Below, one piece after another: positions 1 to 44,200 of a DNA stretch of 64,000 bases. Within the stretch, counting starts at the first letter, position 1, and each line of letters opens with the position of its first letter. The position numbers were made by a program, and so were the translations under genes. This DNA is from a virus: IMG/VR virus record IMGVR_UViG_3300044701_003563; one strand, written 5' to 3'. A model generated the notes under the pieces. It saw only the letters and a program-made list of their open reading frames with translations. It made no database searches and had not been told where the DNA came from.

Positions 1-507
1 AATTCCATCCCCCTGAGCATAATATCTTGTTCTAGCATATTCATCTTTAACCAAACCAACTCTAAAGTCAAAACAATTAGTTTGATTTAAAATAATAAAT
101 TCACATGTACTATTATACTTACATTCTTCAAGAAAAGAGTGTATGGTGGCTTCTCCCGACCCATAAAAATTTTTCATTTTAATTGGAGAGGTATCATCTT
201 TTTGTACTATTCCTCTTTCAAAAAGTTTTCCATTTTTATCATTAGGTTTTCTTACTCTAAAGATATTTTGCTGACTTTTATATTCAATTGGCGATTTAAA
301 AAGTTTATAGTCTCTTCCATTTTCATCAATATGTTGCAAAGGTATTGAACAAAAATGAGAGAATGCTTTTTCTCTCATGGAAGAGACCAACATATTATCA
401 GATCTACTTTTAAATCCTATATCATTATGAATGTCCATACAAAATCCAACAAATGAGTCCCAATCACAATTATTTTGAATTAGATCGGCAATTTCTTCAA
501 GATTCAT
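1..507 (-). CDS. Hypothetical protein, possible PD-(D/E)xK nuclease fold; runs off the left window edge
   Basis: Manually translated open frame from ATG at 507 (MNLEEIADLIQNNCDWDSFVGFC...HIDENGRDYKLFKSPIEYKSQ...YAQGDGI) with no stop before position 1. It is absent from the ORF track and has an upstream sigma70 promoter. Confidence 0.8.
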   Translation of the reverse strand, partial: MNLEEIADLIQNNCDWDSFVGFCMDIHNDIGFKSRSDNMLVSSMREKAFSHFCSIPLQHIDENGRDYKLFKSPIEYKSQQNIFRVRKPNDKNGKLFERGIVQKDDTSPIKMKNFYGSGEATIHSFLEECKYNSTCEFIILNQTNCFDFRVGLVKDEYARTRYYAQGDGI

Positions 508-529
508 GGAGTTTGTAGTGGTTGACAGA

Positions 530-558
530 ACTGTAACCGATTATATCTAATTTGTCAA
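530..558 (-). promoter_or_regulatory. Sigma70-type early promoter
   Basis: TTGACA (558-553), 17-nt spacer, TACAGT (535-530), about 23 nt upstream of the ATG at 507. Confidence 0.6.
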
Positions 559-3500
559 TCCTCAATTTGAAAATCTTCTGCCCAGCACTCACCGTATCCA
601 TTTTTCTGGTCATCATATGGATAATGTTGCAATCCTTTACGGTTCCATTCCAGATCAATTCCTTCTCTGGGGAAAGACTTAAATGCTCTAGTAGTAACAT
701 TTTGACTAACTTGATGGGATTGATTCCATCCTCCGCAATTGTCATGTAAATATTTTTCAGGTTCAAGTAACATGATGTTGATTGTTTCATCAAATTTAGA
801 GCAATATCTTGCTCCAATATAAGTTTCATTTCTAACAAAGAAAGGATAATATTTGTGAAGATTTTCTTTTGATATTTTAATTTTATCAGAAAGACCATTA
901 TATTCTAATGGAATATCATACAATTCTTTTACATTACAACTTTTTCCCCAAAAAACATGATCTCTTGGATGAAACAAAAGATTTGGATATATTCCAGCAA
1001 CAAAAATCTGATCTTCAAATTCTCGATTATTCAACAGGTAATTGTACATATTATGCATACTTTCATCATAATATCTTTGATCGGTTCTCATTTTGGCGCA
1101 ATACTCAGTTGTAACTAATTCAAGTCCAGCATGAGCACTTGCTATTTGTAAATTTCTATTGTCAGTTCCTGGAATTGGTTTTTCTATTTCAACAATTTTA
1201 ACTCTATCATGATCAATAGATCCGTCATACTGTCCCTTCCAAGTAGAAAGAATTATATTATTAATAAAATCTAGTTTAAGGTATGAATTTATAATATTTG
1301 GAGTCTCTTCATCAAAATGCCCAGCAAGGACAATATCAATTTTTCCAATATCGTTATTTACACTATTGGTTTCTTCATTTTTATTTTTATTGCAGGAAAG
1401 ATTTTCCAGTATATCTCGATATTGCTCGGTAAAGAAGCACTCAATGTTCTTAAATTTTTCTAGTTCTTTTTCTACTTGAACTTTATATTCTTCTGGAATT
1501 TCATAATTATCTTTAATATCCATCAAAATATTATAAGATTCTTCAATTTTACCCCAATCCCAAGCAGCAAGTGCTTGCTCGTACATAATAGCAAATTTCC
1601 CAGGAAAATGAACATCCGTTTTAAAATTGGGAATAGAATCAAAACTGGAAAAATTTAAAGCTGTTGATGCGTAAATATAACAATCTTGCCAAAATCCTCT
1701 TTTTCTGCAGAAATTACTCAGATGATAATATGCTTCTGGTCTATGTGGTAATAATACCAATGCTTGTTGTAAAATTCCTTTTGCGGTCATATCTCTAGTT
1801 CCTTGCCTATCATAACAATAAGCACCATGAATTAAAGATTCATAAGCATAATGATCGTTTTCAAATCTTTCTGCTGCTCTTAAGAAGAAAGAAAGTGCAG
1901 CCGCATCTTGACCATGAACTTCATACCAAAGTCCAATTTTAAAATTAAGTTCTGGATTTTCAGTATCAGATGAATATTCAGTCAGCAATTCTTCAATATC
2001 CAGAACAATTTGAACATAGTTTTGATTTTTTACATGCACCATTGATTTTTCTCCTAAATTTTCTACTTTTTCAAATGCCCAATCATTTGCTGAAAGTGAT
2101 TTTACTTGTCTATATCCCATATTATACATCAAACTTTGAATTTTTTCAGCATTCTCATCCAAGTGAAGGTATTCAAATTCTACTTTTTTTATCAAATATT
2201 TTTCCCAATTAAAATTAAGTAATATATCCGATTCTAGACCTTCAATGTCCAATAATAACCAATCAATTTCTTTAAGATTGTATCTATCAAATAATTCTTC
2301 CAATGTAATACAGGAAATTTCAAAAGTTTCAATATTTCCATCCGTGAGGGAAGATCCAGGCCAATCAATACATTTTTGAATATGTTCTTTTTTGCAAGAT
2401 GCGATTTCGTAATTTGATTCTTCAGGATGATAATAAAAGGTTAGATGATCATGTTCATGCGATGGACTTTTTATTCCCAAATTTTCTACAAAAATATTAT
2501 TATATTTTTTATAGCATTCTTTTACAGAATCTATATGTATTTTATTTGCATCTACAAATAGTCCAAATTCTATTTCATTTTCTTTATAATTTAAAGACAA
2601 ATACTCATATAAATCATCATACCCTCTATTACAACCAATTTGAACTACTTTTAATTTTTTTAAATTATTTTTCCCAAAAATTAAATTTAAATTATTTTTT
2701 GAATTATTTTTCCACCAATTTAAATTGTAAGTATAGCTATCGAGATGATTTTCCTTAATACCACTATCTATTTCAGAAAACGTGGTCCCTAATTTAAGAT
2801 CTTCTAGAAATAAATTGACTGAATATACTTTACCATGTCCCCAGAATAAAACATTTTCTGGCATTGGATACCATCCAGTATCATAAACTTCCAAATTAAA
2901 TTCATTTTCTGAAACATAATATTGATCAATAATACGTTTTGCGTATTCTTTAGTGAGAATATAAGCAGTTACTGACCAATCGGTTTGCCATCTATTTTCA
3001 AATTTTAAATCTCTTTGTTCATCCCTAATACAATAAAGTTGAACGCAGTCAGCATCATCTGGAAGATTTTCAATGAACTCTTTCCAGGTAAAATCCCAAT
3101 ATTTTAAAGATTCCAAACTTAGATCATCTTCACAAAAGAATCCATATTTTTCATCAGATTCATCATACCATTTTTTAATCATTTTGATATGTGAAACTAC
3201 ACATCCTTTAGTCCCACTATCTAAAATATTAACTTGAGATCCAGTAACTATATCATTAGACTGATCAAATCTTTTAGATATTAATGGATTAAATTCAGTT
3301 ACTCCATTTTTTTTAAATTGTTCTATTAAATTTTTTTGCCTATCTTTACTTTCTTCAAGACTAATAAAATTTACTTTTGGAAAATCTTCAAGTTTTTTTA
3401 TATTATTTACTTTTTTTGCATGAAAATATCTCTCGGATATTTCTTCCAATTTCCATTCATGAATCCTTTTAATATAAAAATTATCAATTTTACCAATGTC

Positions 3501-27691: not shown

Positions 27692-30600
27692 TTACTTACC
27701 TAATGCGATGATGAGTGGTGTTACTGTTTGCAATAGACTTTGACTGAATGCCCTTCCACTAATTGTTCCAGTTAACTGATTAATGGTCAAATCAGTTCCA
27801 ATTCTAAAGTTACCTGCTTGATTTGTACTTGTAAATACAACTTGTCCTCCATTCAATTTCACAACTTCATTTTCGGCAATTGTCACACCCCCAAGTGCAG
27901 GTTTTGCTTTATTAATGTCTGTTCCTGCTCCAACCCATTCAAAAGAAATTGTTGTTGCAATTTGCAAACTTAGTCTAGAAAAATATACAGTAGTATCTTC
28001 TTCTATTGTATTATTTAGATTCTGCGTAAGAACAACTGTTGATATTCCAGTAATTCCATTATTCCACGGAATAGTGGCAGACTCTACAAAATAATATATA
28101 GGTTCCATTTCAGCTTGAGCTATTGCTTGTGTTCCCCCAGCAAATGGGGGATCAATAGTTACTATAGGAACATTTCTATACTGACTTCCTTCACTAATAA
28201 CATCAATTGAAGTTATTGCTCCCGTTACAGGATCTACGTTTACACTTCCTTCAGCACGAATTCCTCTTGCATTTTCGGGAGGAAGTTCAATAGAAACATT
28301 TGGGGGAACTAAAGCACTGTATCCACTTCCACCATCAATAACATTTAATCTCTTAACACTCTTGAACAATTCACCAAAATAAAGTGCTTGTCCATCATAT
28401 GGTCTATATGTACCTACCCCAGCAATAATTACTCTATCTTGTTCAACTTCTGCCCTTTCATCAACAAAACCTGTCATGTGATAAATTGATTTTGTATTTG
28501 CATCACCAACACCACTGGAATATAATCCATAATTTCCAAAAGAAGCATTAGAGTTTGTAAGGTCACACTGTCCACCAGATCCAGTGAAAATTGCAATATC
28601 ATCACAGATAGTAAAGATAGAAACTAACTGAGAATAACCGCCATTAGTAATAGAAACGCCTATGCCACCTTGATTATATTGAGTATATGAGTCAACACTC
28701 ATTGTTCCAGTTACGCCAATATCATCTTCATATCCAGGTTCTGCATCAAATCCATCAACTTTCATTCCTATACTGTTACCGACAAAATTAGTGCAATTTC
28801 TGATATAAGGTCCTTGTGTAATTGGCCCAACACCTGGGGAATATGGAGGAATTATATAACCATCTCCAATATAAGTATGAGGTATTGTTGAAATTCCAAC
28901 ATCTAAAGTGAAAGTTGAACTCTTTCTTTGTGTTACATTTCTAACTGTTCCGCCAGAAACATATGTGTGTGGGAAAGGTCCTACCCCAGTATTAATTGTG
29001 AGATCATTTCCATTAACTCCATAAACTTTAAATACATAACCAAATTTTCCAGATGGATAAATTGGTGTTGTTTGAGCACCACTGGCACAAGTAAATTCAA
29101 AATCTCTTATTTCTATTAAATCATCAACAGAAACTGAAAAATTTGGATCAGTTACTGTAATTGTTGTTACTCCTGTTGTATGAGTATATTGACAATTTGT
29201 GGCATTATATAATCTATCGGAAATAATATCTACAACTTTAAAATCATTTCCATAAAACTTTCCGCCGAATTCAGTTTGAATAGATTCTGATGGGAAAGTT
29301 GCTGTAATCGTTGGACCCCCACTGCTGCAAGAATAAGTAAGATCACGAATAGTTACAATATCTTCTCTTGAAACATAAGCTCCTGGGGCGGTAATTGTAA
29401 CAATTCCAGAAGTATGGTCATATGGAGCACTGGTTATGTTAAACGTCCTATCAATTACATAACCATCTCTTTCATAAGTATGAGGTAATGTAGAAACTCC
29501 AACATTTAATGTATAGTCATCCCCATTTACATCATCAATATAAAATCTATATCCATAAAATCCTGAAGGAAATACTGATTCGGAAACTGGACCTCCAGAA
29601 GAACATGAAAATACTAAATCCTTTATTTCTATTCTGTCGCCCTTTCTTGCATTTAATCCAGGTACGGTCACTATAACTTTACCAAATACCTCGTCATAAG
29701 TAGCACCAGATACAAACTTAACATTACTAAATGGGATACCTTCCCCTCTATTTCCTGGGAATGACGTAGTAATTCCTGAAGTTTGTCCATATCCAATTAT
29801 TGTAGTTACAACACCTACCAAATTTCTAATTGTAGAAACTACATTTTTGCAACCAGCAATAGATTCGTTTACTCCTTGGGGGAAAAATTCCTCACAACCC
29901 AGAGAAGGATCTTTTTGAATAGCAGCATCTTTTACTTGAGTAAAAGATTTAGTAAATTGTGATCTTCTTTCAATTGTTCCAGATGAATAGGGCCATTCTG
30001 TAATCGTGCTCCATCCTACAGATCCAGCTTCCGCACTACCATCTCCAGAATGATAATGTGCAATTGTGGATGGACCTACCAAAACTTCAAATGTGTTTGG
30101 ATTTGCAGAGAAAAATGCATTATCTTGTGGAAGTCTAAATACGCAGAAAATATTTCCATAATATTTTCCACCATATTCAGTTTGTGCTTCCTCTGATGGA
30201 AAATATGCAGTTGAAAAACCAGGACCACTTCCGCAACCAAATATTAAATTCTCAAAATAAATTGGATCTCCTGGTCTTATATCAGCATCTTCTACTGTAA
30301 CATCATTCCCATTTTGATCTTGAATGAAAACCGTTGCAAATCCGCATTCATTATCATACAAAACATTACTAACAACAAGTTTTCCATATGTAGAAATTCC
30401 TGCTGCTCTAGAACTTAAATATGAAAAATTGTTATTATTAATAATTGATCTTGCAATTAAAAATGAATGTTCTAAGGTTGCTACTGTTTGCTCGACCTCT
30501 TGTGGATTTTTAAGAATTTGTGGAATTAAATTCCAGTCATCATCATAATAAGCACTTCCTGCGTTTATTGCCTCACTATTTCCACCTCTAGTTAAATCAT

Positions 30601-32197
30601 GTACTATCCTTTTCCATACATCCTTAATATCATCTCTGCAATCTTGTTCTACATCAAGATTAACTCCAAAAGTTGTAGTAATCCCAGAAAGATATGTTAA
30701 TCCATTGGAACTTATGTATTGTTGATATAACGTATTTGTAACAATACCAATATTGGTTTTAACGTCATCTATGGTAAGTGTGCAATTTCCAGGAAGTGGA
30801 TCGTAACTTAAGTCCTGATATACCCCTCTAGATCCATATGCATTGCTATTTGCAAATGTCGTAGTTCCAAATCCAACTGCTGCTGGGGATGTTGCCCAAT
30901 CAATGTTATTAACGACATGAGTTGCTATTCCAGCAGCAAAACTTAAAGCATCTACAGTAGCTTTTAAAATACTATTGTTATTAGTATCATTGCCAGTAAT
31001 GTGAAGAAGAGCACCAGCATCACTGAAATATGTTCTAGCAGCACCTATTGATTTTTTATTACTTCCAGATTTTAAATCATTAACTAAAGATTTTAATATA
31101 TCTTTAACATCATCTTCACAATTTACTGGGGCAGTTGGAACGCCATTGACCGAAATAACGAATGGTTGACCATTACTTCCAAGATATCCAAGGGTTCCTA
31201 CATTTCTAGCAGTTAAAAATCCTACAGTTTCTGCAGCAATATAATCAATATTTGCTTCTATTTTTTTAGCAGCATCTTGTGCAAGATGATCTCCAGCATA
31301 ACCACTATATCCACTATGCAGCCAAGCAACAGATTCATTTGCAAGAAAGTCTAGATTAAATCTAAGCATTCTTGCGGCATCAAAATATCGATCTTCCTTT
31401 GTGCCCAAAAGTTTTTCAAGAGATACCATTGCAGCTCCATCTCTTGCGTTTTTTCCTATAAAACTTAAATCAGTTATATGGCAACCATTGTTGACATAAA
31501 ACATATCCTTTTCAGGAAATTTTGGTGTTATTACAACGTTTCTTAGTTCAGTTCCTTCTACAGCAACAAGTTCATTTAAAACTATTGGATTTTCTTCAAC
31601 ATAAATCCCAGGATATACTTTAATAGTATCTCTTGTTAAAGCAACAGATGCTGCACTTTTAATAGTTGCCTTCGCATCTGCTTCACTCAGCCCACTATTT
31701 GCATCATCACCATTTGTAGTAACAAATACTGTTTTACCTACTGGCGCAAAAGATTGAATTGTTACAATACCTTTTCCAGGTACTTGCGTTTCATCAATAC
31801 TAATTCCAGGTCCTGCAACAATTTGAGTTACAATACCAACAAGTCCTGATCCATCACCAGCATATTTTCCAACAGTAAGAGTATCTCCAACTGTAAGATC
31901 ATTAGAAATTAAGGCGCTATTTGATACTGATAGGTTTCCAATAGTTGCGCCAGTTAAACTTGCAGATCCTGCAGAAAGAGATCCAAATAAACCAGAAGAT
32001 GAATCAACATTTCCAGCAGATAACGTTTGCGAAACCGTTAAATTTGGATTTATTATTGCATCGCCTAAAACATGAAAAGATGCTAAAGGTTGAGTTAAAC
32101 CTATTCCAACTCTTTGAGTATCAATGTCAGCATAAATTAAATTGGTATTTACCTCAAGACCATTTCTAACAACAAAGTTTTTATTGACTGAGGCCAT
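27692..32197 (-). CDS. Large virion protein, paralog of 17261..21301, with two phycobiliprotein-like repeats
   Basis: KNFVVRNGLEV N-terminus; same beta-helix motifs (GPYIRNCTNF, DSYTQYNQGGIGVSITN); CEDD and CRDD repeats; ends TPLIIALGK. Confidence 0.75.
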   Translation of the reverse strand: MASVNKNFVVRNGLEVNTNLIYADIDTQRVGIGLTQPLASFHVLGDAIINPNLTVSQTLSAGNVDSSSGLFGSLSAGSASLTGATIGNLSVSNSALISNDLTVGDTLTVGKYAGDGSGLVGIVTQIVAGPGISIDETQVPGKGIVTIQSFAPVGKTVFVTTNGDDANSGLSEADAKATIKSAASVALTRDTIKVYPGIYVEENPIVLNELVAVEGTELRNVVITPKFPEKDMFYVNNGCHITDLSFIGKNARDGAAMVSLEKLLGTKEDRYFDAARMLRFNLDFLANESVAWLHSGYSGYAGDHLAQDAAKKIEANIDYIAAETVGFLTARNVGTLGYLGSNGQPFVISVNGVPTAPVNCEDDVKDILKSLVNDLKSGSNKKSIGAARTYFSDAGALLHITGNDTNNNSILKATVDALSFAAGIATHVVNNIDWATSPAAVGFGTTTFANSNAYGSRGVYQDLSYDPLPGNCTLTIDDVKTNIGIVTNTLYQQYISSNGLTYLSGITTTFGVNLDVEQDCRDDIKDVWKRIVHDLTRGGNSEAINAGSAYYDDDWNLIPQILKNPQEVEQTVATLEHSFLIARSIINNNNFSYLSSRAAGISTYGKLVVSNVLYDNECGFATVFIQDQNGNDVTVEDADIRPGDPIYFENLIFGCGSGPGFSTAYFPSEEAQTEYGGKYYGNIFCVFRLPQDNAFFSANPNTFEVLVGPSTIAHYHSGDGSAEAGSVGWSTITEWPYSSGTIERRSQFTKSFTQVKDAAIQKDPSLGCEEFFPQGVNESIAGCKNVVSTIRNLVGVVTTIIGYGQTSGITTSFPGNRGEGIPFSNVKFVSGATYDEVFGKVIVTVPGLNARKGDRIEIKDLVFSCSSGGPVSESVFPSGFYGYRFYIDDVNGDDYTLNVGVSTLPHTYERDGYVIDRTFNITSAPYDHTSGIVTITAPGAYVSREDIVTIRDLTYSCSSGGPTITATFPSESIQTEFGGKFYGNDFKVVDIISDRLYNATNCQYTHTTGVTTITVTDPNFSVSVDDLIEIRDFEFTCASGAQTTPIYPSGKFGYVFKVYGVNGNDLTINTGVGPFPHTYVSGGTVRNVTQRKSSTFTLDVGISTIPHTYIGDGYIIPPYSPGVGPITQGPYIRNCTNFVGNSIGMKVDGFDAEPGYEDDIGVTGTMSVDSYTQYNQGGIGVSITNGGYSQLVSIFTICDDIAIFTGSGGQCDLTNSNASFGNYGLYSSGVGDANTKSIYHMTGFVDERAEVEQDRVIIAGVGTYRPYDGQALYFGELFKSVKRLNVIDGGSGYSALVPPNVSIELPPENARGIRAEGSVNVDPVTGAITSIDVISEGSQYRNVPIVTIDPPFAGGTQAIAQAEMEPIYYFVESATIPWNNGITGISTVVLTQNLNNTIEEDTTVYFSRLSLQIATTISFEWVGAGTDINKAKPALGGVTIAENEVVKLNGGQVVFTSTNQAGNFRIGTDLTINQLTGTISGRAFSQSLLQTVTPLIIALGK

Positions 32198-32243: not shown

Positions 32244-35200
32244 TTATGGATTTGATTTTTGCTGAGTTGCGTCTGATATAACTTTAGCAATTAATTTTGC
32301 CAATCCAACTCTGTTATCGACTGGATCTTTTCCACCTGGAATCAACTTATATGCTTCCCCCTCAATACTTAAAAGTGACCTAGTTACGTTTTGTATATCT
32401 CCCTCACCAGTTCCAGTTGATGGTGCATTTCCATCTACATCAACGGAAGCATAAATTACTGGATATCCCACCCTAGACCAAGTATTTGAATTTCCATACA
32501 ATTCTGAACGATTTGCAGTTGTCCATGGAGATAAAGCAATGCTTGTGTTTGGAACATATGCTTCAGCAAAATAATCAATTAATTTTTTGCCATTAGGCAT
32601 AATTGTTGATGGAGTTAACCCGATTCCTGTGGAAACATCCTCTAATTGGAATGAAAAAGTTGTGGCATTTCTTACTCTATAAGAAGTATATGCTATTCCA
32701 GTTCCCTCTTCAACGTATGTAGTTGTATTAAATAATCTATTTAATCTAATAGTGACTATTTCCCCGTTTACAAATGGATGATTATCAGATCTAACGGTCA
32801 AAACTGATTTATCATTTATGATTATTGCTTTATACCCAGAAGGAAGATCATCGGAAATAGAAGCAGTTATTGTGTTATCCGTTTGAATAACTATTTGATC
32901 TATTCTACTTCCAAAAGCAAATCCAGGATTATTAGTTGCAAATGGAGGGATGAATTGTTGTGTACCTTCGTCAACTAAATCAAAACCACTATCGGTAGAA
33001 GAATTAGTATTAGCACGAATAACATTCAATGATTTATTAATTAATCTATAATCTAAATATGGAACACCTAAATTTGGATTACTTCTTCTTGAGGTTATAA
33101 AATATAAGTTGTCATTGGCCACAATATTTGAAAATACGGATTGATCAAATGCATCATTATCAAATATAATTGTAGCAATCCCACTCTTTCCACCCGTATC
33201 ATATAATATAGATGCTTCAAAGTTTGTTGCTGCCAAATCTCTATGTCCTATAGAAGAAGTGCTATAGAAAAATAGTTCTTGAATCTCTGCTTTCTTCTCA
33301 ATGTCTCCATAAGTATAAACTTTATCAATTTTAACAACGCCACCTTTATTTGCTTCTGCCAATGTAAGCATATCATGAGTTTGACTTAACAACCCTTGAT
33401 TTGGTGGTGGCCCAGAATCATTAACATTATCCCACACTTTTTCTAATCCAAATGGCCTAGATCTTCTAGAAATTCCTCCATCCAAATAAATTGTGGATAA
33501 TCCAGAGTTTACCAATGGGGCACTATCTCTTGATATTCCTCTAAATGTAAATCCAGTTCCAGAAATACTTCCACCAGAAATTACTTGTTCTATATAAATT
33601 AAAAGATCATTTCTAAGAGTATTTGTAGTTCCATCTCCAGATTGTCCCCCAAGAAGATTTCCAGGTATTCTAATAACATCATTTACATTATATAAAGATC
33701 CACCACTTAATAACTCAACTGTAGAATAAGTTGTAACCCCAGCAGTTCTTATTCCCCCTCTAACAATTCTGAATTGAGATCCAGAACCTGTTCCAGTTAT
33801 AATAGAAGCTGTTTTTGCAGATTCATAATCGAGACTTGAATCTGGAACAGAGATTGTGGGATTAGATGTTTGTCTTAAAATTGATAAGTTTGTGGATTGA
33901 ATTCCTCCATTTACATCAACAGATCCAATTTTTACTAATGCATCATTACGAGTTCCAGTTGTTCCACCAAGATTTGACCCAGGAATTAGATAAAGTTCAT
34001 TTGTTTTATAATTTGAACCAGTGGAAACTATTGATTGAATTGTATAACTAGAAGTTATGCCAGTTGCATTCCTACGAATTATTAAAGAAGCAGCGGCATT
34101 ACTATTTCCATTTGAAAGACCTATTCTTTGATTATAAAGTAAAGTTCCAGAAATCTTATAATCTGGCCTACCATTCAATGTAATTGGAGATGGATATGGG
34201 CCATTCATTCTAAATACTGTAGAAGTTGGTGCATTTAATACTGTCCTATTCCCATTAAATCCAGAAAGTGAAGAATTAGTAATTGTAACTCCATCTCCTT
34301 GATCCAATAAATGTTGCTGATATACAAAAGATCCATCGAAAGAAAATGTTGACGTAACTATTGGACCTCTATCAAAAATGACATAATATCCTTCAGTATC
34401 TATAGTTGTATAAGAAATAGATCCAGAAGGATTTTGTGTTCCAGAAAGTGCAAAATTTTCAGTGTCTAATATTTCTGAAATAAAGTAAGTTCCTCCAAAA
34501 TCACTCTGCAAAGTAATATTTCCAGTTATAATATCCACCTGAGTTGTACCGACATTTGCAGCAGTAAATCCATGCCCTCCATTTACACGAACAATTCTAT
34601 CAGAATTTGCTAATCCAACTACTCCATTTACATCTCCATTTGGAGAATAATCATTTGGATTTATTGTTGATGGTGATATTAATTCTAAACTATTTGAAGA
34701 AGTATATTTTGCATTATAATCTCCATCAAAATTATCAGTTCCAGTGATATTAATTGATATAATATCCCCAAATATTAATGGAAGATCAAATGTTAAATTT
34801 GAAAATTCTATAGAATTAAATCTAATTATTGCTGGAGAATTTCTAAGTCCAGCAGTATAACCAAGACCAGAATTATTCTCAACAGTAGAATAATTAGAAG
34901 GATTGATTGCTTCTTGAAGACCTACTCTTGTTAATCCTCCAGTATCAGTCCTCCAAGCAATTGTATATGGACCAGGAAGAGATAATTGTTGGGAAGATGC
35001 TGTATCAGTTCCATCATTATTTACAATATCAATTTGAGAACCAACTGCAAAAGAACTTGGAATTATATTTGAAAATGTTGCTATTGCTGGATAATTTTGA
35101 TAACCAACCAATCCAACAGTGGATGTTATTGTAAAGTTTGTAGAAGCAGTACTTACGGTATTACTAATATTAAATAAATTTGCGTCTACTGTAGTAACAG

Positions 35201-38200
35201 TATATAGTTTATTATCAAATCCTGTTGAAGTATTTTGAATTTTTATTGATTGCCCATCGATTAAACCATGTGCGGTGCCTGTTCTAATTCTTACACTAGA
35301 TCCAACTAATCCAGCAATTGATCCAGAACCTTCATTAATTCCAGTAAATGATACTGGATCGGTACGTGTAATTCCAAAAGTTGTGCTAGTATATCTTTTA
35401 ACAGTATAAGTTCCATTAAATGTGGTTGAATTTTGAATTCGTACTTGATCTCCAGTTTTGAAGTCTACATCAGTCCCTCCCACAACTCTTGGAGTTCCAT
35501 TATATGTAACTGTTGGTCCAGCATTTTTTAATGTAATTAATCCATTTGGATCAATTGTGGAATTCGATATTTCTGTGTAACTAGTTGGGTTTGTTTTACC
35601 ATTAAGAGTAAATCTATCATTATCTATTTTTGTAATTGTATAAGAACCATTAAAATTAGCAGTTCCTTCTATTTGAACACTTTGATCTGTTGTAAAGGGA
35701 TGATTTGTTGATGTGACAGTTGCTGGATAATTTTCCAATCCAGCAATTCCTCCCGTTGCATTTGCATTCGTAAAATCATCAGTGTATTGAGTCGAATTCG
35801 TACTGTTTAATATAAATTGAGTTGGAGAAACGTAAGTTATTGTGAATGTATTATTAAATATTCCTAAATTTCCAGTTGTATTTTCAATTTGAACAGAATC
35901 TCCATTAATAAAAGGATGATTTGAACTTGTAGTTACAACAGCATTTGCTCTCAATCCAAGAATACCACTGTTTCCTCTAAGACCAAAGTTTGTACTGGAA
36001 GTTGATGATGACGAACTTGATGGAATTGCAATGAGACCTGTATCGTTTCCAAAATTTGATTGAATTGTAAATAAATTGTCTGCAATTAAAGCATTTCCAT
36101 TTTGATCTAAAACATTTTGTATTCCAACAGTTGATCCAACAGGAATAGAATTTGCTCCAGAACTTACAGTAATATAATAATTTGCACCAATTAAACCAAT
36201 TGTTCCCCCAGCTCCTGGATTACTATAGTCTGCAGGATTGAGTCCATTATCTGTCAATAATATACTTGTTGGAGATATAACTCTGGCATTTCTTGCCGTA
36301 TTCGTGTTTAATGCAGTTTTTCCAGTGTCTTGCAATTTAACTTGAATGTTTGATCCATTGGGTCCAAAATACGGAGACGGGAAAGAATAACTATTCGTAA
36401 ATGATATAACTGGACCTATTCCTCTAACACCTATTCCTCCAGATGTATCACGTAATGCAAAATTAGTAGAGCTATTTGATGTAGAATTTAAACTAAGTAT
36501 ATTTCCATTTACATTATTAATAGTATATGTTCCATTAAAATTAGTAGTACCATAAATGTCAATTGATGCTCCATTGACAAAAGTATATCCAGATGGAGTT
36601 ATTGTTCCATGAGTTACTTTCAATGAATCTCCAACCAATCCAACTATTGTATTAGAATTTGCATTTGAAGAACTTACATATTCATTTGGATTTGGTGTAG
36701 TTTGATTTCTAAAACTATCAGAACCGAGAAGAATTCTTGTACTATCTAGAATTCTTGCGTTTGTATATGTTTTATTGAAGAACGAAGATGGAGAATCTTG
36801 AATTTTTATAGAAATTAAACTTCCTACTGATCCAAAAGAAGACGTAGATGTTACCGTAGCAATTCCAGAAATTGTATGAATGCCTATTTTGCCAGAAGAA
36901 CCCTGTAAAGCAAGTGTCGATGGCGTTTGATTTTCTTTAAGAATAAATGCATAAGGTTCCGTAAATGAAGATTTAATTCCAGAAATTACATATGCATCGT
37001 TATAAATTGCTGATTCTCCAGTGACTCCAAATACTGTAATTGCCATTCCAACTGACAATTTATATTCAGTAATTGACTGAGAAGCAGTGCCAGAAAGATT
37101 AAAAGTATTTCCAAAATTTGTAATTAAATCTGCTGCTGTAGATACAATGCCAGTTACAGAATCGGCAAGTCTAAAAGTATTAATTCCTGCCTGTGCTACT
37201 TGCCAAATTTTATTATAGACACTATTTTCATTTCCACTTATTGAAACTAATTGTCCATTGCTAAATCCATGAGAAGGTGCGTCTACAATTGGAATTAATT
37301 TGTTGACTATGTAATAACTTCCAGACGCATTTCCAAAAGCAACACTTCCACCTTGACTTGCAAATTCAAAAGAAAATCTATCTTGACCAATGCCAGCATC
37401 TTGTACACTTGTAACTGTAAGTCCATATCCCGTATTTGTATAATCAAACACAGTTCCAGTACCAAAAATATAAACAATATCACCATTTTGTAAATAATTA
37501 TCAAGATTTAAACCTGAACCATTCCCTAAAATTGTAACTAAATAACTAGCAGTTACTCCGTTATTATTAAATTGATTAAAACCTTGTGATGAATTAAGTA
37601 AATATGGATTTACATTATCTGGAGATACTTCTCTTAAATTATAAGCAATACTTGTAATTCCAACATTTCTGAATGTTACTGGTACTACTAATTCCAATTC
37701 TGATTGGTTATATCCTACAGTTGACCCAGATCCTATAGTCGTTGCTGCAAATAATTCAGTTCTTCCAGTATTATCAATTTTAATTTGAGTTGGACTTTCT
37801 ACAGATTTTACAGTAAAAGTTGAATTCCAATCTGAATCTGTTGTTCCTCTTATAATTATAGAATCTCCAGTTATAAAAGTATGATCTGCTGATGTTTGTA
37901 ATAATGCATCAGAACCAAGTCCAACATTATTATTAACCCCATTATCCAATTGAGTAATAATTAATTTTGCAGGTAAAGGATTCTGTACTGGCCCTGCACC
38001 AAGACCTGGAGCAGAAACTTCTATCTCATAATCACTCAATACATTAATAATAGAAAGACTTTGATTATCTAAAGCAGGTTCTCCAGTTCCTGCTACAAGA
38101 ACTTTTCCCCCAATCCCAATATTTCCAGGTAATGCTGCACCTGAAGGATTGAGAGTAATAAGACATTGATCATTTGCTGGATCATACTCAACTATAGTAT

Positions 38201-41168
38201 ATGCATCTGGATATGTAATAAAGGAAATTGCAAATGCTGTATATCCAATACTTACAATGTTTGGTGCAGTATATCCAATACTTACTACACTAGTACTTGT
38301 AAATCCAATATTTGTAATCGTAGATGTCGTGTAAGCAATTCCTGCAACATTTCCATGGGTGAATCCAGCTCCTGTAACAGAAAGTATAGTATATCCTATT
38401 CCAACTATATTGGAGGTAGAGTATGCAATACCCGTAGTGCTAGAAGTGATATTAGTATATGCAATTCCAGAAATATTAAATGAACTTTGAGCTAATCCTA
38501 TTATATTTCCAGTTGTATATGCAATACCAGTAATTCTTGCAGTTGTGTACCCTATTCCTAAACTAGTTCCTTTTCTATAATATACTGAACTTATATCAAT
38601 AGGTTCATATGAAAAAGTTGCAGTTTTTGGATAATATGCATTTAAAGGTACTTGATAGTCTATGTAATTTGTGGGCGTTCCCGATACCGAATAAGTATCT
38701 ATTATACCACCCGACAATACATTAGTTACTGTAATTGTTATATTATTTGCCGATGTTCCATCCAATTCCGTTCCAGATATTAATAATTTATCCCCATTTT
38801 CATAATTTGTTCCACCATTAAGTAAAGTTAAGGAATAATTATTATTATTGAATTCATTTTTTCTTACAGTAAATGTGGCATTTGTAGTCGTTCTTTCTGC
38901 AAAATTATCACTCAATAAAGCAGTTACAGTATATTCTAAAGGTTGCACACTTGTAATTCCAACTACAAGATTATTTTCTATATTATCTTCTCCCAAAGAA
39001 GATGCAGAAATTGTAAATTTATCTCCAATTCTGTAATCAGTTCCAGCAAATCCTGGTCTCACTTGTATGATGTATCTATCGTTTAATTTATCAATTTTAA
39101 AAGATGCTCCAGTTCCAACAGTTGTATCTTCAGTAACCGTATTGTTTTGTCTTGTAAATCCAGAAGTGGAATCAGTTATTGAATACTCTATTGATTTAAA
39201 ATAATTTGCGAATCTCCAAGTAGAAGGTGGATTTTGTGATGTTGTAAAAGTATAGGAATATTTTGATAGATTTGCATATATGTATTCTTGCCCTGCCTTT
39301 TTTACAAATACGGCATCATATCCATCATTGGATTCATATCCACTAATTCCGATAACTCTAAGATTTCTATATTGTACTTCTTCTTCTATCGTTCTTGTTA
39401 CTGTTTGAATTGGTGGTCTAAAGAATAAAGATCCTTCTTCCCAAACTTCCCGTCCTCCAAAGAAATATCCAGATCCGTTAAGAACGTAAGAATTTTCTTT
39501 AGATCCAGTTCCAGAAGCAGAATTAACGTCAAATAATAATCTAACAAAACTTGGATTTATTAAAGAAGTACTAAAATTTAAACTTCCGTCAGGAGTAAAG
39601 TTATTTGTTCCAACATTGGGATTGCCTAATATTAATCTGAATGGATAATATCTTCCTGAAGTAAAGTTTAAATTAGCAGATGTGACCGAAAAAACATCAT
39701 TTAAATCACTATCTGGATTCTGTAGTAAATTATCTCTTGTGCCAGAGTTATCTGGGCAAGTAATTGTAGAATTTGATACTGTATATCCACTATAAACTTT
39801 AGAATCTGGACCAAATCCGTCAATTCCTGTTGCATCGGATCCAATCCAAAAACAGCTAGTTCCAGTTGATTGAATTCTAAAGGTGAATGATCCCGATATC
39901 TGAGGAGCAAAGTATCCAACTATCATTATAGTATAATTGGATATATCAGATCTTAATCGATCAATTTCAAAAATTGGTCCCCAAAATCCACCCTTTTGAA
40001 TCGTAGAACTTAAATTTTGGGTTGCTGGTGTTATCTGAGAATTTGGAATTTCAATACCTGCATAAGATGGATCTGTATTAAGAACAGCAGTTCCTCCTCC
40101 AGTATATCCTTCATAAATGATTTTGGGTTGACCTCCCAAATCAGCTGCTGCAGTTGCTGTTGAATTGGGAGTTCCATTAATAAACCAGTTCATACCTGGA
40201 GCGTCTTCAAATTCTCCAGTTGTAGTATTACCTAATGGAAGTGGAATAGCTTTATTAGTAAACCAACTTTCAATAGAAGACTCTGGATCTGGAGAATCTG
40301 GATCGTCTAAAAAATATCCTCTATATCTTCTAACATAAAATCCAGAGGAATTGTATTTATATTTGTCAGTTGTATAACCAACATTATTTTTAGTAGATAT
40401 TCCAATACCTATTAAATTTGAAGCGGTATTTTCTTGTTCATTAGATGCAGCAATTACATATGTCGGTAAATTTCTTCTAATTGGAGTATTTAAAAATTGA
40501 CCAATATATGAAGTATTTACAGATCCTTCTGTTATATTATTAACAGAAGCATTATTGGATCCACTATAATAAAAAGACCAAATATTTCCGTGAACGTCTT
40601 CACTATACTGTCCTGGATTATCTATAGTATCAAACGAACTAAATCTTGTTGCTGTTGACTCACTTGAAACTTTTGATGCTATATTATATCTTAATGATCC
40701 AAGGTTAAAAACGCCCTCATCACTATTAATATATTGATTTTTCCAAAGGTTTTTAAAACTTCTTTCGTTGAAATAATTTGAATCGGCTACAATAAAATGA
40801 TTTGGAAAAGTCGTAGTTTCCGTGTTTAGAGTTAAAGATTGTGTAAAAGATTTTGATCTAAATGTTTGATCAATATACGTATATAAATTTGGTGATGATT
40901 GAAACTGAGCTCCTACTTTTAATGTATATAAGTCATTCTGAAGAGTTGATGGAAATATTCCATCATAAAACATAGAAACAGTTGATCCTACTGAAATATT
41001 TCCACCTGGACTAGTTCTGGGACTAGTATAATTACTAACTCCAGAGGAATCCAAATTCATTGAATAGGAAACATCAGTAAAAAATACTATGTTTACTCCT
41101 TCAGAAAATAAATTTCCTCTGAATAAAATAGGTGATAAATTGGCAACAGAAGAACCGTAAAAGGCCAT
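32244..41168 (-). CDS. Giant 2974-aa virion protein: split vWA-like domain, PA14 domain and many small beta-repeat domains
   Basis: VFFTDVSYSM (MIDAS DxSxS); IVGYFAP..SGSFTFRIQS...YYPFRLILGN (PA14); repeated H(G/P)F..GD.V.I.G...FNG.YT units; C-terminal LTLAEANKGG. Confidence 0.7.
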   Translation of the reverse strand: MAFYGSSVANLSPILFRGNLFSEGVNIVFFTDVSYSMNLDSSGVSNYTSPRTSPGGNISVGSTVSMFYDGIFPSTLQNDLYTLKVGAQFQSSPNLYTYIDQTFRSKSFTQSLTLNTETTTFPNHFIVADSNYFNERSFKNLWKNQYINSDEGVFNLGSLRYNIASKVSSESTATRFSSFDTIDNPGQYSEDVHGNIWSFYYSGSNNASVNNITEGSVNTSYIGQFLNTPIRRNLPTYVIAASNEQENTASNLIGIGISTKNNVGYTTDKYKYNSSGFYVRRYRGYFLDDPDSPDPESSIESWFTNKAIPLPLGNTTTGEFEDAPGMNWFINGTPNSTATAAADLGGQPKIIYEGYTGGGTAVLNTDPSYAGIEIPNSQITPATQNLSSTIQKGGFWGPIFEIDRLRSDISNYTIMIVGYFAPQISGSFTFRIQSTGTSCFWIGSDATGIDGFGPDSKVYSGYTVSNSTITCPDNSGTRDNLLQNPDSDLNDVFSVTSANLNFTSGRYYPFRLILGNPNVGTNNFTPDGSLNFSTSLINPSFVRLLFDVNSASGTGSKENSYVLNGSGYFFGGREVWEEGSLFFRPPIQTVTRTIEEEVQYRNLRVIGISGYESNDGYDAVFVKKAGQEYIYANLSKYSYTFTTSQNPPSTWRFANYFKSIEYSITDSTSGFTRQNNTVTEDTTVGTGASFKIDKLNDRYIIQVRPGFAGTDYRIGDKFTISASSLGEDNIENNLVVGITSVQPLEYTVTALLSDNFAERTTTNATFTVRKNEFNNNNYSLTLLNGGTNYENGDKLLISGTELDGTSANNITITVTNVLSGGIIDTYSVSGTPTNYIDYQVPLNAYYPKTATFSYEPIDISSVYYRKGTSLGIGYTTARITGIAYTTGNIIGLAQSSFNISGIAYTNITSSTTGIAYSTSNIVGIGYTILSVTGAGFTHGNVAGIAYTTSTITNIGFTSTSVVSIGYTAPNIVSIGYTAFAISFITYPDAYTIVEYDPANDQCLITLNPSGAALPGNIGIGGKVLVAGTGEPALDNQSLSIINVLSDYEIEVSAPGLGAGPVQNPLPAKLIITQLDNGVNNNVGLGSDALLQTSADHTFITGDSIIIRGTTDSDWNSTFTVKSVESPTQIKIDNTGRTELFAATTIGSGSTVGYNQSELELVVPVTFRNVGITSIAYNLREVSPDNVNPYLLNSSQGFNQFNNNGVTASYLVTILGNGSGLNLDNYLQNGDIVYIFGTGTVFDYTNTGYGLTVTSVQDAGIGQDRFSFEFASQGGSVAFGNASGSYYIVNKLIPIVDAPSHGFSNGQLVSISGNENSVYNKIWQVAQAGINTFRLADSVTGIVSTAADLITNFGNTFNLSGTASQSITEYKLSVGMAITVFGVTGESAIYNDAYVISGIKSSFTEPYAFILKENQTPSTLALQGSSGKIGIHTISGIATVTSTSSFGSVGSLISIKIQDSPSSFFNKTYTNARILDSTRILLGSDSFRNQTTPNPNEYVSSSNANSNTIVGLVGDSLKVTHGTITPSGYTFVNGASIDIYGTTNFNGTYTINNVNGNILSLNSTSNSSTNFALRDTSGGIGVRGIGPVISFTNSYSFPSPYFGPNGSNIQVKLQDTGKTALNTNTARNARVISPTSILLTDNGLNPADYSNPGAGGTIGLIGANYYITVSSGANSIPVGSTVGIQNVLDQNGNALIADNLFTIQSNFGNDTGLIAIPSSSSSSTSSTNFGLRGNSGILGLRANAVVTTSSNHPFINGDSVQIENTTGNLGIFNNTFTITYVSPTQFILNSTNSTQYTDDFTNANATGGIAGLENYPATVTSTNHPFTTDQSVQIEGTANFNGSYTITKIDNDRFTLNGKTNPTSYTEISNSTIDPNGLITLKNAGPTVTYNGTPRVVGGTDVDFKTGDQVRIQNSTTFNGTYTVKRYTSTTFGITRTDPVSFTGINEGSGSIAGLVGSSVRIRTGTAHGLIDGQSIKIQNTSTGFDNKLYTVTTVDANLFNISNTVSTASTNFTITSTVGLVGYQNYPAIATFSNIIPSSFAVGSQIDIVNNDGTDTASSQQLSLPGPYTIAWRTDTGGLTRVGLQEAINPSNYSTVENNSGLGYTAGLRNSPAIIRFNSIEFSNLTFDLPLIFGDIISINITGTDNFDGDYNAKYTSSNSLELISPSTINPNDYSPNGDVNGVVGLANSDRIVRVNGGHGFTAANVGTTQVDIITGNITLQSDFGGTYFISEILDTENFALSGTQNPSGSISYTTIDTEGYYVIFDRGPIVTSTFSFDGSFVYQQHLLDQGDGVTITNSSLSGFNGNRTVLNAPTSTVFRMNGPYPSPITLNGRPDYKISGTLLYNQRIGLSNGNSNAAASLIIRRNATGITSSYTIQSIVSTGSNYKTNELYLIPGSNLGGTTGTRNDALVKIGSVDVNGGIQSTNLSILRQTSNPTISVPDSSLDYESAKTASIITGTGSGSQFRIVRGGIRTAGVTTYSTVELLSGGSLYNVNDVIRIPGNLLGGQSGDGTTNTLRNDLLIYIEQVISGGSISGTGFTFRGISRDSAPLVNSGLSTIYLDGGISRRSRPFGLEKVWDNVNDSGPPPNQGLLSQTHDMLTLAEANKGGVVKIDKVYTYGDIEKKAEIQELFFYSTSSIGHRDLAATNFEASILYDTGGKSGIATIIFDNDAFDQSVFSNIVANDNLYFITSRRSNPNLGVPYLDYRLINKSLNVIRANTNSSTDSGFDLVDEGTQQFIPPFATNNPGFAFGSRIDQIVIQTDNTITASISDDLPSGYKAIIINDKSVLTVRSDNHPFVNGEIVTIRLNRLFNTTTYVEEGTGIAYTSYRVRNATTFSFQLEDVSTGIGLTPSTIMPNGKKLIDYFAEAYVPNTSIALSPWTTANRSELYGNSNTWSRVGYPVIYASVDVDGNAPSTGTGEGDIQNVTRSLLSIEGEAYKLIPGGKDPVDNRVGLAKLIAKVISDATQQKSNP

Positions 41169-41204: not shown

Positions 41205-44200
41205 TTATGATGTAGAATACTGACCGTATACTCCCAAAACATAAGAAGAACTTGATGTAAATGATCCAGAAGCATCACAGAAGAAAGTAAATCCTATAAT
41301 ATAAGAATCTGAAACACTTACTGAAGTAGGAGGTATATTTCCGTTCAGCCATCTCAAGTTTGATGCTGGAATGATGGTCGAATTTATTTGAAGTTTTGTT
41401 ATCAAATTGCTAGTCCCACTTACATTAAGAACGACAGTATAGTTGTATGTTCTATTTGGAGTAGTTGGAACTGATGTTATATTTAGGGTATCAACAGAAC
41501 CTATCGTTCCATCCACTCTGAATATTGGTCCATTAGCAAATGAAACTGATATTACGTTTGAAACTGTGCTGGATGTTGTATTAACAACATCGGAGATTTG
41601 GAAGAATGTGGAAATGCCAGTTACCTGATCTCCTGCCTTATTGAAAGGATTATACCCCAATCTTGCGGGTATATTTGTGTAGAAAGATCCTGGTCTTCCT
41701 GTTCCAGTTCCATCGCCAGGACCATCTAGTAATCCAGTAGAAATTCCAGCAATATATACCTGATTAGATGCATTTGTAATTCTGGATGGAATAGACGCAT
41801 TAGTATTTAAATCTTCAGGTTGTTCTCCCTGAACTCTTGAAGCATTTAAATTAGAAACTAAAACACTACTAGAAACTGTAAAGGGTGGTGTTGATCCATC
41901 ATTAACAGTAGATCTAAATCTTGTAGATTCGACAACATCTCTTGCTACAATTCCACCGTATACATTAAATGTTGTAGTTGCAGAACCTACTATTAAATCT
42001 GCAACTCTGTTTATTCCTGCATACCATATATATCCGAAACTATTGACATTTTGAGGAACACTCCACCATAAAACATTATTATTTCTTCCTACGGCATAGT
42101 TTGTAGCACTTGAAGTTAATTTTTGGTCATAGATTATTCTTGTTCCATTACTTCTAACTGCAAAAATTGGATCCCCAAGTCCCTGATTTGGAGCTGTTCC
42201 AGGAAGTTCTGTGCCAGTACCAAAATTAATTGGGAAAACGGGTGATTGGAATTTAATGGTTGCAATACCAACAGAGTTTAGGTCCTGTCCATATTCCGAA
42301 ATAACTTTAACACCAAATCCTAAAGATGAACCAACAAAGTTAATAACCTCTTTAGTTGCAAATGCTGGAGCGCCAGATGGAGTGAGAGTTGGAAAATATT
42401 CACCAAAATCGTTTCCAGTAACAATACCTACTTTGTTGGCAGCTCCTTGAGTTAATGCAAATGTAACTGTTGTTATTCCCGTTGATTCATTATATTGCTG
42501 CGTAATGTTTACATTATTGCCAGATTCAAATCTAAGAATTCTGGTTAATTCAGCATCAACTAATGCAGAGGATGTTACATCAACGCCATACAAACTGTCA
42601 TTTATCCATCCATATTCTTGCCATTTTATTTGATTATCTGTAGGATCTGTGGCATATACCCACCCAACATTACCTCCAATCTGAGGAAGTGCATTTAAAA
42701 CTCTATCTCCAACGTTTGCTGCAGTTGTTGGTCTTGTTGTCGATATTCCAATTTCTCTGGAAATATCCAAATCACCTCTAATATTCAGTTTTCTCAATTC
42801 TAATCCATTCTCTGAAGTGGAAGTTATCTTCTCATTAAATATTGTTGGACCATTAAATTCGGAAATAAGATTTGATTCTTTTCCTCCATTAACTTTAATA
42901 GATCTGTTTACAACAATTTCTTCTGGTGTAGTTATATTATATCCACCTTCAGAAGTTAATTCTAGAGGTTCTTCTCCAGTTACTGTTGGGATAGGAGACT
43001 CAAAAATCTGATCCTTTCCAGTACTTGTTAATTTTCTGTTATTATTATAAAAATCTCCATCACTATTCATTGCTGAATATAAGATAGTTCCTCCATCAAT
43101 TTTGGTGGATTGGGACAATATTACTTCTTGAGGACTTAATACTCTATCTTGTCTTTCGGGCAATGCAGTTGAATAATTACCTGGACCAAATCCAAGATAT
43201 TCAAAAGTATGTCCAGATGCACGAATAATTGAATTTCTTCTAAACTCGATTGGGAATACTTTAATTTTTTGAACTGTAGAATTCCTTTGATGAGTTTCTC
43301 TTTTAGTTCCAAGTAAAGCTCTAATAACACTAATACTATTACTTGTAACTCTTTGAGATATTCTCATTATCTCATTGTTAACCAATAAATAATCGCCAAG
43401 TTTTAATTCACTAATTAAAGTTGAGTTATATAAAACAAGAGGAGTGGAGTCACTGGAAGTGTTATTAAGTTGAGTACCTACATATCCAGTAAATTTATCA
43501 TAAATATACTTCAATCTTCCAGATGAGTATTCATCTCTTAAATTAATATCCCCTCCACTTGCAGCATAATTTACTGGAATTGCTTTAATAGTTCCACTAG
43601 TCGATTGTGAAGAATTTGATTTTCCTACATTAATTCTTACACTTAATTGACTATTAACTCTAGTTACAACAAAGTTTTTATCATTATAAAAACTATTAGT
43701 AGCTCCATAAAGTGATATTGTTGATCCAGATTTAAATGGATGTGTTGTAGTAAAACCAACAGTTCCTACACCACTAATTCGATCATAAGAGATCGAATTT
43801 ACATTTAACGCAGTTCCAGAAATATTTCCAATGGCATTATCAGATGCATCTCCAATTGAAGGTAAAACTTGAGTTAAAGTTTTTTGGGATTCCACTTCAA
43901 TTTGTTTGGGGAATCCAGTTTTAACAGAAGTAACAATATAATTACCATTATATTGATCATAAGTTTTTGATACTGATTTTACTGACGAAACATTAATTAC
44001 AATTCCTTGCGAATTATTAATATTTGATACCGTAAACAATGCTGAATTTGAATTTGTCCATGATGCACCTGTAGATAATCCTACAGCAGATAATGTGTTT
44101 CCTATTCCGTATGCACTTCCGCCATCTAATATAGTAACAGAATTTACAACCCCACTTGCATTAATATTAACAATTGCTGTTGCCTTTGTTCCCGTAGTTG

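Follow-up and report, generated by a model that had tools for sequence, protein, structure and literature searches.

Decapeptide strands and FCCH-type barrels in a giant phage tail-module protein: a predicted fold-back nest of domains

How does a run of very short, ten-residue strands relate to the long array of small beta domains that follows it in the same giant protein? This question is raised by a 64,000-nucleotide stretch of viral DNA (IMG/VR record IMGVR_UViG_3300044701_003563; the window hereafter is this whole stretch as analysed), in which one open reading frame (ORF) on the minus strand encodes a protein of 2974 amino acids, here called P0001. A sequence-only reading of the window had pointed to this protein and proposed that about 13 ten-residue strands near 38210-38600 are the missing first strands of about 14 downstream domains, threaded through them in reverse order. 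The ORF and its length proved correct, and the idea of nested strands is probably right in kind, judging from predicted structures. The decapeptides are best read, on the AlphaFold2 models described below, as displaced first strands of FCCH-type beta-barrels, and we give a probability of roughly 0.6 to a fold-back nest that is at least four levels deep. Prediction supports four levels of a main nest, which would be formed by the innermost strands u9-u12, and a separate two-level nest formed by the domains D3 and D4. The features that carry the argument are the following, with positions in the window and residues of P0001.

32244..41168, minus strand: ORF of P0001, 2974 aa, giant protein of the tail-fibre/baseplate module
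38574..38657, minus strand: residues 838-865, degenerate strand-like segments LNAYY, TFSYE and SSVYY ahead of unit 1
38208..38573, minus strand: residues 866-987, twelve decapeptides u1-u12 of the pattern xxIxGIAYT, proposed first (beta0) strands
37905..38207, minus strand: residues 988-1088, D1, contiguous six-stranded FCCH-type barrel in the models, hairpin tip
37698..37904, minus strand: residues 1089-1157, D2 core, five cis strands, completed by u12 in the models
37638..37697, minus strand: residues 1158-1177, cis strands LELVV / FRNVG / ITSIAY, the last of which is beta0 of D4 in the model
37293..37637, minus strand: residues 1178-1292, D3 core, contiguous barrel predicted to be nested within D4
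37083..37292, minus strand: residues 1293-1362, D4 core, by profile match and structural alignment
34140..37082, minus strand: residues 1363-2343, D5-D17 cores, by profile matches, proposed partners of u11...u1
32580..32807, minus strand: residues 2788-2863, D18, lone FCCH-like domain near the C-terminus, by profile match

The decapeptide run and the barrel array

The run is a well-defined element. Eleven of its twelve units are ten residues long and one has 12 residues, and motif matches at a spacing of 9-12 residues occur eight times in succession, compared with at most two in 2000 shuffles of P0001. A tandem-repeat search of the DNA over the run found nothing, and thus its periodicity is maintained at the protein level. 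From a large protein collection we obtained relatives of P0001, namely 25 full-length proteins (2629-3357 aa), one fragment and three short proteins (approximately 1600-1700 aa). The run stays in register in all 25 full-length relatives, mostly with 12 units and with 14 in four of them, and it is the most conserved region of P0001. Ahead of unit 1 an aromatic residue recurs each 8-10 residues through residues 838-865, giving up to three degenerate segments that are modelled with low confidence; in place of the 13 or so strands first counted there are 12 clear ones and up to three degenerate ones upstream. An ESM Atlas search with the run returned nothing usable. On the opposite strand an antisense ORF of 105 aa (38166-38483, plus strand) overlies the decapeptides, most likely as a side effect of the periodic codon pattern.

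The downstream domains are equally real, and more numerous than had been counted. A jackhmmer profile identifies 15-16 significant copies of approximately 70 residues within residues 1089-2343 and one more at 2790-2863, and the block 988-2343 consists of 17 head-to-tail domains, D1-D17, when the divergent D1 is included. Standard copies extend from ATVT..H(G/P)F..GD.V.I.G..FNG.YT to G.(I/V)GL with about four residues between neighbours, so that they do begin abruptly at the ATVT..H(G/P)F stage, as the sequence-only reading described. The intact versions that it placed elsewhere in the window were not confirmed: when compared with all ORFs of the window, the domain profile matches P0001 alone, and within the window the copies with a first strand in cis are confined to P0001 itself (D1 and the D3-D4 pair).

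As modelled, the domains are FCCH-type beta-barrels. FCCH is a six-stranded closed barrel, and FCCH-like decoration domains are present on siphophage tail-tube proteins (PMC13576161). Two AlphaFold2 models were used: model 1 covers residues 855-1590 (the run and D1-D7, 736 residues) and was built on a 26-row alignment, with a mean predicted local distance difference test score (pLDDT) of 70.6, and model 2 covers residues 855-1160 (the run and D1-D2). In these models D1, D2 together with u12, and D4 together with its cis strand each superpose as a six-stranded barrel on the whole FCCH domain of Uba1 or Uba6, with Z scores of 7.8-9.4, root-mean-square deviations of 2.2-3.1, 72-80 aligned residues and at most 21% identity; the best matches reach Z 9.0-9.4 and deviations of 2.2-2.5 over 76-78 residues. 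Taken separately, D1 (model residues 134-219) gives Z 8.5-9.4 against the Uba6 and Uba1 domains and 8.8 against the phage endosialidase barrel, D4 with its cis strand gives 9.0-9.4 at 20-21% identity, and D2 with u12 gives 7.8-8.5. In structural alignments of the models, the isolated mouse FCCH domain (2v31) scores Z 8.5, the endosialidase barrel 8.8 and a phage tail-tube protein, through its outer domain, 8.2-8.8. DSSP assigns six strands in cis to D1 and five to each of D2, D4, D6 and D7. The first strand is contiguous with the second in D1 only; the aligned ranges of D2 and D4 begin 100-130 residues before the core, and that of D7 approximately 570 residues before it.

Sequence profiles give fainter signals of the same relationship. 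Pfam PF16190 scores 10.6 bits on P0001, below its gathering threshold of 29.5, and 25.2 bits on the relative P0003; single copies match E1_FCCH in three of 16 cases, all weakly (best E value 7e-4), and one copy matches PF12195, the endosialidase barrel, at an E value of 0.014. Precomputed PF16190 matches exist for the relatives P0003 and P0040 and also for P0175 and P0176, proteins that carry the same domain with no decapeptide run. Sub-threshold Pfam matches in P0001 are 'Decapeptide' at 916-978 and E1_FCCH at 1742-1795. A Foldseek search with the 736-residue multi-domain model produced only meaningless long alignments (template modelling score at most 0.12), and a 16-copy profile run on PDB sequences produced only chance matches to antibody light chains.

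The FCCH domains of Uba1, Uba6 and Uba7 (PDB 2v31, 6dc6, 7sol, 9qic; PF16190) and the domains of P0001 thus share a six-stranded closed barrel and an HG(F/L)..GD.V motif, whereas P0001 lies below the Pfam threshold and lacks an E1 context. They differ also in where the first strand comes from. In Uba1 it stands immediately before the second, but the modelled standard copies here take it from 100-600 residues upstream. FCCH is itself inserted into another domain, and its two ends therefore lie together. The endosialidase barrel (PDB 4hiz, 1v0e, 3gvj; PF12195), which is likewise an inserted domain, and the tail-tube decoration domains (PDB 9n71) place the same fold in phage tail proteins (Z 7.9-8.8). 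These are single contiguous decoration domains, while in P0001 18 copies share one chain and most lack a first strand of their own.

Pairing order in the predicted models

Where the first strands come from can be read from the ranges over which one known FCCH domain aligns to the models. Such a range is given by the first and the last aligned model residue only, and contacts are deduced from these ranges. In model 2 the FCCH domain of Uba1 (about 82 residues; yeast 179-261, human 215-297) aligns either to residues 134-219, which is D1, or to 120/121..302/303 with 72-78 residues aligned. Since D1 occupies 134-219, the second alignment can only consist of u12 (124-131) and the D2 core (approximately 232-303). 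In the models u12 would hence replace the first FCCH strand of D2, and D1 would sit in the first turn of that barrel. Model 1 concurs, with many alignments at 122/123..301/302, again u12 and D2.

Further along the chain the models show another such nest. The Uba1 and Uba6 domains align to model residues 310/311..512/513 with 76-78 residues aligned, which corresponds to a strand at 1165-1176 and the D4 core, around D3; D3 itself aligns contiguously (332..438, 95 residues aligned, Z 8.6). The strand taken as beta0 of D4, NVGITSIAYN (starting at 1168), ranks first of the 2835 decapeptide-profile windows outside the run, 4.3 standard deviations above the mean. D3 is thus predicted to lie inside D4, which would use a decapeptide-like strand in cis. 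In both places the models present a complete inner domain between two segments of an outer one, D1 within u12/D2 and D3 within 311-322/D4, as in a discontinuous domain insertion. Discontinuous domains and single domain insertions are common.

The order of the units further out is indicated by comparing the two constructs. With D1-D2 alone u12 is ordered (pLDDT 70-90) whereas u9-u11 stay at 36-43, and with D1-D7 present all of u9-u12 are ordered (71-89). Alignments at 88-92..729-736 (65-77 residues) join u9 to D7, the last domain present in model 1, and one at 112..577 joins u11 to D5. Alignments to a single target domain at 123..562-567 are read as D5 lying against the u12-D2 barrel. The ranges of u9-D7 and u11-D5 imply that the pairing order is reversed and that D3-D4 are skipped; both pairings are inferred from these ranges in the model. 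The prediction of the run with subsets of the domains thus agrees, for u12-D2, u11-D5 and u9-D7, with the reverse order suggested earlier, and it leaves u1-u8 unpaired and of low confidence. The missing-first-strand proposal is supported by the models for u9-u12. A one-to-one count is not supported, as there are 12 units and 17 domains, and D1 and D3-D4 complete themselves; nor is the depth of about 13 first proposed.

The arrangement would be as follows. The chain would run outward along the 12 beta0 decapeptides as a spine and turn at D1, which alone among the barrels of the main nest has its own adjacent beta0. It would then return as a string of five-stranded cores, and each core would gain its sixth strand from a decapeptide, the order being reversed: u12 with D2, u11 with D5, presumably u10 with D6, u9 with D7, and onward to the outside. 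D3-D4 would be a small self-contained nest of like kind inserted in the array. Both the spine and the domain chain would link each barrel to its neighbour, and with every junction tied twice beads on a string would become a stiff rod. The N-terminal part, with a PA14/GLEYA domain and two repeats here called A, and the C-terminal part, with two further A repeats and a C-terminal domain, would be brought to one end.

39600..39935, minus strand: residues 412-523, PA14/GLEYA lectin-like domain, sole Pfam domain above threshold in P0001
38583..39101, minus strand: residues 690-862, two A repeats upstream of the run (..Y..GD...I.G..L.G....N......V), by family consensus
33369..34121, minus strand: residues 2350-2600, two A repeats downstream of the array, by family consensus and BLASTP

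A repeats on both flanks of the run and the array are as expected for a chain that returns to its start. The upstream and downstream pairs match one another in BLASTP at an E value of 0.004. The symmetric two-plus-two flanking by these repeats (..Y..GD...I.G..LGG....ND......V...G.I) is kept across the family.

The pairing of u1-u8, the shape and length of the rod (approximately 3 nm per barrel) and a role as the shaft of a tail fibre or adhesin are extrapolated. If all 12 strands (and up to about 15) are used, the nest would have at least 12 levels and the protein would be a monomeric, doubly tied rod of approximately 40 nm with its termini together, which in evolution would grow and shrink by matched indels in spine and domains; we hold this full version tentatively, at odds somewhat short of even. 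A nest at least 12 deep would be, to our knowledge, by far the deepest recursive domain insertion, and we know of no natural protein with one small barrel nested many levels and its first strands aligned as a spine. Literature searches turned up FCCH-like decoration domains on phage tail tubes, but none gave a description of such a nested array. Donor-strand complementation is known from chaperone-usher pili, where an incomplete beta domain is likewise completed by a strand distant in sequence; there the donor comes from the next subunit, whereas the donors proposed for P0001 belong to its own chain and pair in nested order.

If the nest is real, it would be a simple way of stiffening a string of small domains into a rod, and it would mean that strand complementation works at long range within one chain. 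It would also pose a folding problem, as the outermost barrel could not close before approximately 1400 residues had been made. The short relatives, of about 1600 aa with only six strands and seven barrels, make the question testable. For annotation it would be a warning that short periodic beta motifs ahead of domain arrays may belong to those domains.

Relatives and rival explanations

Strand and domain numbers would be expected to change together if the nest exists, and the clearest case is a pair of sister proteins. A tree of the N-terminal non-repeat part places P0008, with 14 units, as sister to P0013, with 12. Only two indels of at least 15 aa separate them: P0008 has 20 aa more in the run, near u8-u10, and 156 aa more beside D7. 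The 156-residue stretch is a D7/D8-like domain pair, which makes the difference two units and two domains, and the position of the indels fits the modelled u9-D7 register within one unit. All of the 14-unit proteins (P0008 and P0015-17) bear an extra domain pair. Losses of D3-D4 are also informative. P0004-6 lack exactly D3 and D4, and P0010/11 lack 253-263 residues spanning D3-D4, all with 12 units kept; loss of these domains at a constant unit number agrees with D3-D4 as a self-contained nest, as modelled.

Across the whole family the agreement is looser. Units and domains number 6/7 (the short relatives), 12/13 (P0031 and P0025, without D3, D4, D7 and D8), 12/15, 12/17 and 14/19; with D1 and D3-D4 subtracted, units and cores number 6/6, 12/12, 12/14, 12/14 and 14/16, a near but not exact match. 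The co-variation that had been anticipated among homologs is seen between the sisters (+2 units, +2 domains) and not in the family-wide rank correlation of run length with domain number, which is not significant (rho 0.14, -0.06); run length and array span correlate at rho 0.49 among sequences that are not independent. A comparison of mirror positions in two 14-unit lineages was weakened as a test, because the extra pair seems common to P0008 and P0015 (08b against 15b, score 174) and the gap in the run can be placed only to within one unit. In addition, the D7-D8 pair is present in zero, one or two copies among P0008, P0013, P0015 and P0031. D2 and D4 of P0008 are far less similar to those of P0013 than the later domains are, and these sequence similarities suggest mosaic exchange within the gene.

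A number of observations weigh against the nested arrangement. The outer units u1-u8 have pLDDT values of only 29-46 across both models (29-40 in model 1), where they form a low-confidence solenoid. Every pairing is deduced from where structural alignments begin and end on the models rather than from coordinates, and the alignments at 123..562-567 are ambiguous. AlphaFold2, working from a 26-sequence alignment, may have learned the six-stranded barrel and simply be filling its empty place with whatever beta0-like strand is free. P0001 has 12 units for 14 candidate cores (17 minus D1, D3 and D4), which is not one-to-one; degenerate upstream units together with possible cis strands in D15 and D17 could close this gap. 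P0031 keeps its 12 units in spite of the loss of D7-D8. The 14-unit state may have arisen once and then been passed on by descent or recombination, in which case the co-variation comes from few independent events. Lastly, of the 146 best-scoring proteins beyond the 26 relatives collected first, 143 carry tandem arrays and no run, and the stretch ahead of their domains resembles the decapeptides only modestly, with 17% above the random 95th percentile of decapeptide likeness against 11% in a within-domain control.

These points bear most directly on the view that the run is an independent element, for example a beta-solenoid, a beta-meander or an oligomerisation or attachment segment of a trimeric fibre, that the barrels are stable five-stranded beads, and that the docking of u9-u12 is an AlphaFold2 artefact. 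This was our first reading, based on the low pLDDT of u1-u8, the run-less arrays and the unequal counts; the second model and the aligned ranges led us to prefer the nest, and the earlier view is kept as the main rival. We consider it unlikely, although it has several points in its favour. The solenoid of u1-u8, with about 20 residues per coil, aligns to leucine-rich repeat (LRR) proteins (Z 6.3-7.9, 110-120 residues aligned), D6 and D7 reach a pLDDT of approximately 90 in model 1, and some run-less proteins are covered to 75-88% by domain copies. The numbers of units and domains are unequal, and the run resembles the ten-residue repeats of DotG (E value 2.5e-7). What the view leaves unexplained is that u9-u11 become ordered only with D3-D7 present, that a whole Uba1 FCCH domain aligns to u12 and D2 across D1 in two models, that D4 makes like use of the best decapeptide-like strand outside the run, and that the sole large indels between the sister proteins are two units and two domains.

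The run-less arrays are themselves instructive. The domain sequence family comprises 2282 proteins at an E value of at most 0.001, each with 2-20 tandem copies, and arrays in other phage and metagenome proteins (P0035, P0060 and P0100) belong to the same sequence family as that of P0001, yet almost all of the best-scoring ones do without a run. In many of their copies a strand, for example ITGITKAN or VVSAITIAT, immediately precedes beta1. The sequence of Uba1 likewise has a strand directly before the second strand. Periods in the run-less arrays of the metagenome representatives P0035, P0060 and P0100 are approximately 60, 72 and 84 residues, and in the arrays of shortest period a GGVVT strand leads directly into the ITT..H.F strand of the next copy; neighbouring barrels there may share or swap strands. 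The domain family seems to have several modes of joining barrels.

A further possibility is that the inner units complete barrels of their own chain while the outer units donate to another copy or to a different virion protein, so that a strand-swapped dimer, trimer or polymer would result. Most family members have more candidate cores than clear units, the models give no partner to the outer eight units, and phage fibres are usually oligomeric, all of which would suit such an exchange; but the domain occurs in no other ORF of the window and the co-varying indels sit within one chain, and we regard the exchange as quite improbable.

Two other candidates for the run were dropped. A pentapeptide-repeat (Rfr) fold, suggested by the A.ITG/IAYTT pattern, found no such protein among the structural matches, the solenoid aligning to LRR proteins instead. 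Membership in the DotG/IcmE repeats (PDB 7muc sequence; PF25296, 'Decapeptide') has in its favour a period of ten, [AG]-[YF]-[ST] with a hydrophobic residue five positions on, and the phmmer match behind the E value given above. The DotG motif is a different one, [KR]xAG[FY][STND]xxx[LI], and PF25296 scores of 13.1 bits for P0001 and 33 bits for P0015 fall below the cut-off of 45. The two probably resemble each other in periodicity and composition alone.

Gene neighbourhood and other features

The genes of the 64-kb window, all on the minus strand, form the tail and baseplate module of a T4-like myovirus. P0001 has as neighbours a gp5-like baseplate hub, tail-fibre proteins and collagen-like fibres, and the relatives of the hub protein come mostly from Synechococcus and Prochlorococcus phages. 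A PHROGs search gave no family for P0001, unlike its flanking giant ORFs at 41205-47495 and 27692-32197 (both minus strand; 2096 and 1501 aa), which have strong tail-fibre matches (phrog_529 and phrog_17885). Megablast and tblastn searches of the P0001 ORF gave zero matches in 50,697 phage records.

A Pfam scan of P0001 found neither a trimerisation nor a chaperone domain. Residues 412-523 score 31 bits for GLEYA, above the cut-off of 26.2, and 18.2 for PA14, below its cut-off of 24; on this sequence match, which reaches the Pfam threshold, the segment is a member of the GLEYA/PA14 family, and sugar binding is only putative. The lone domain D18 carries an internal GTGIAYT, the second-ranked decapeptide-profile window outside the run, and it appears to have a strand, KAIIIND, immediately before its second strand.

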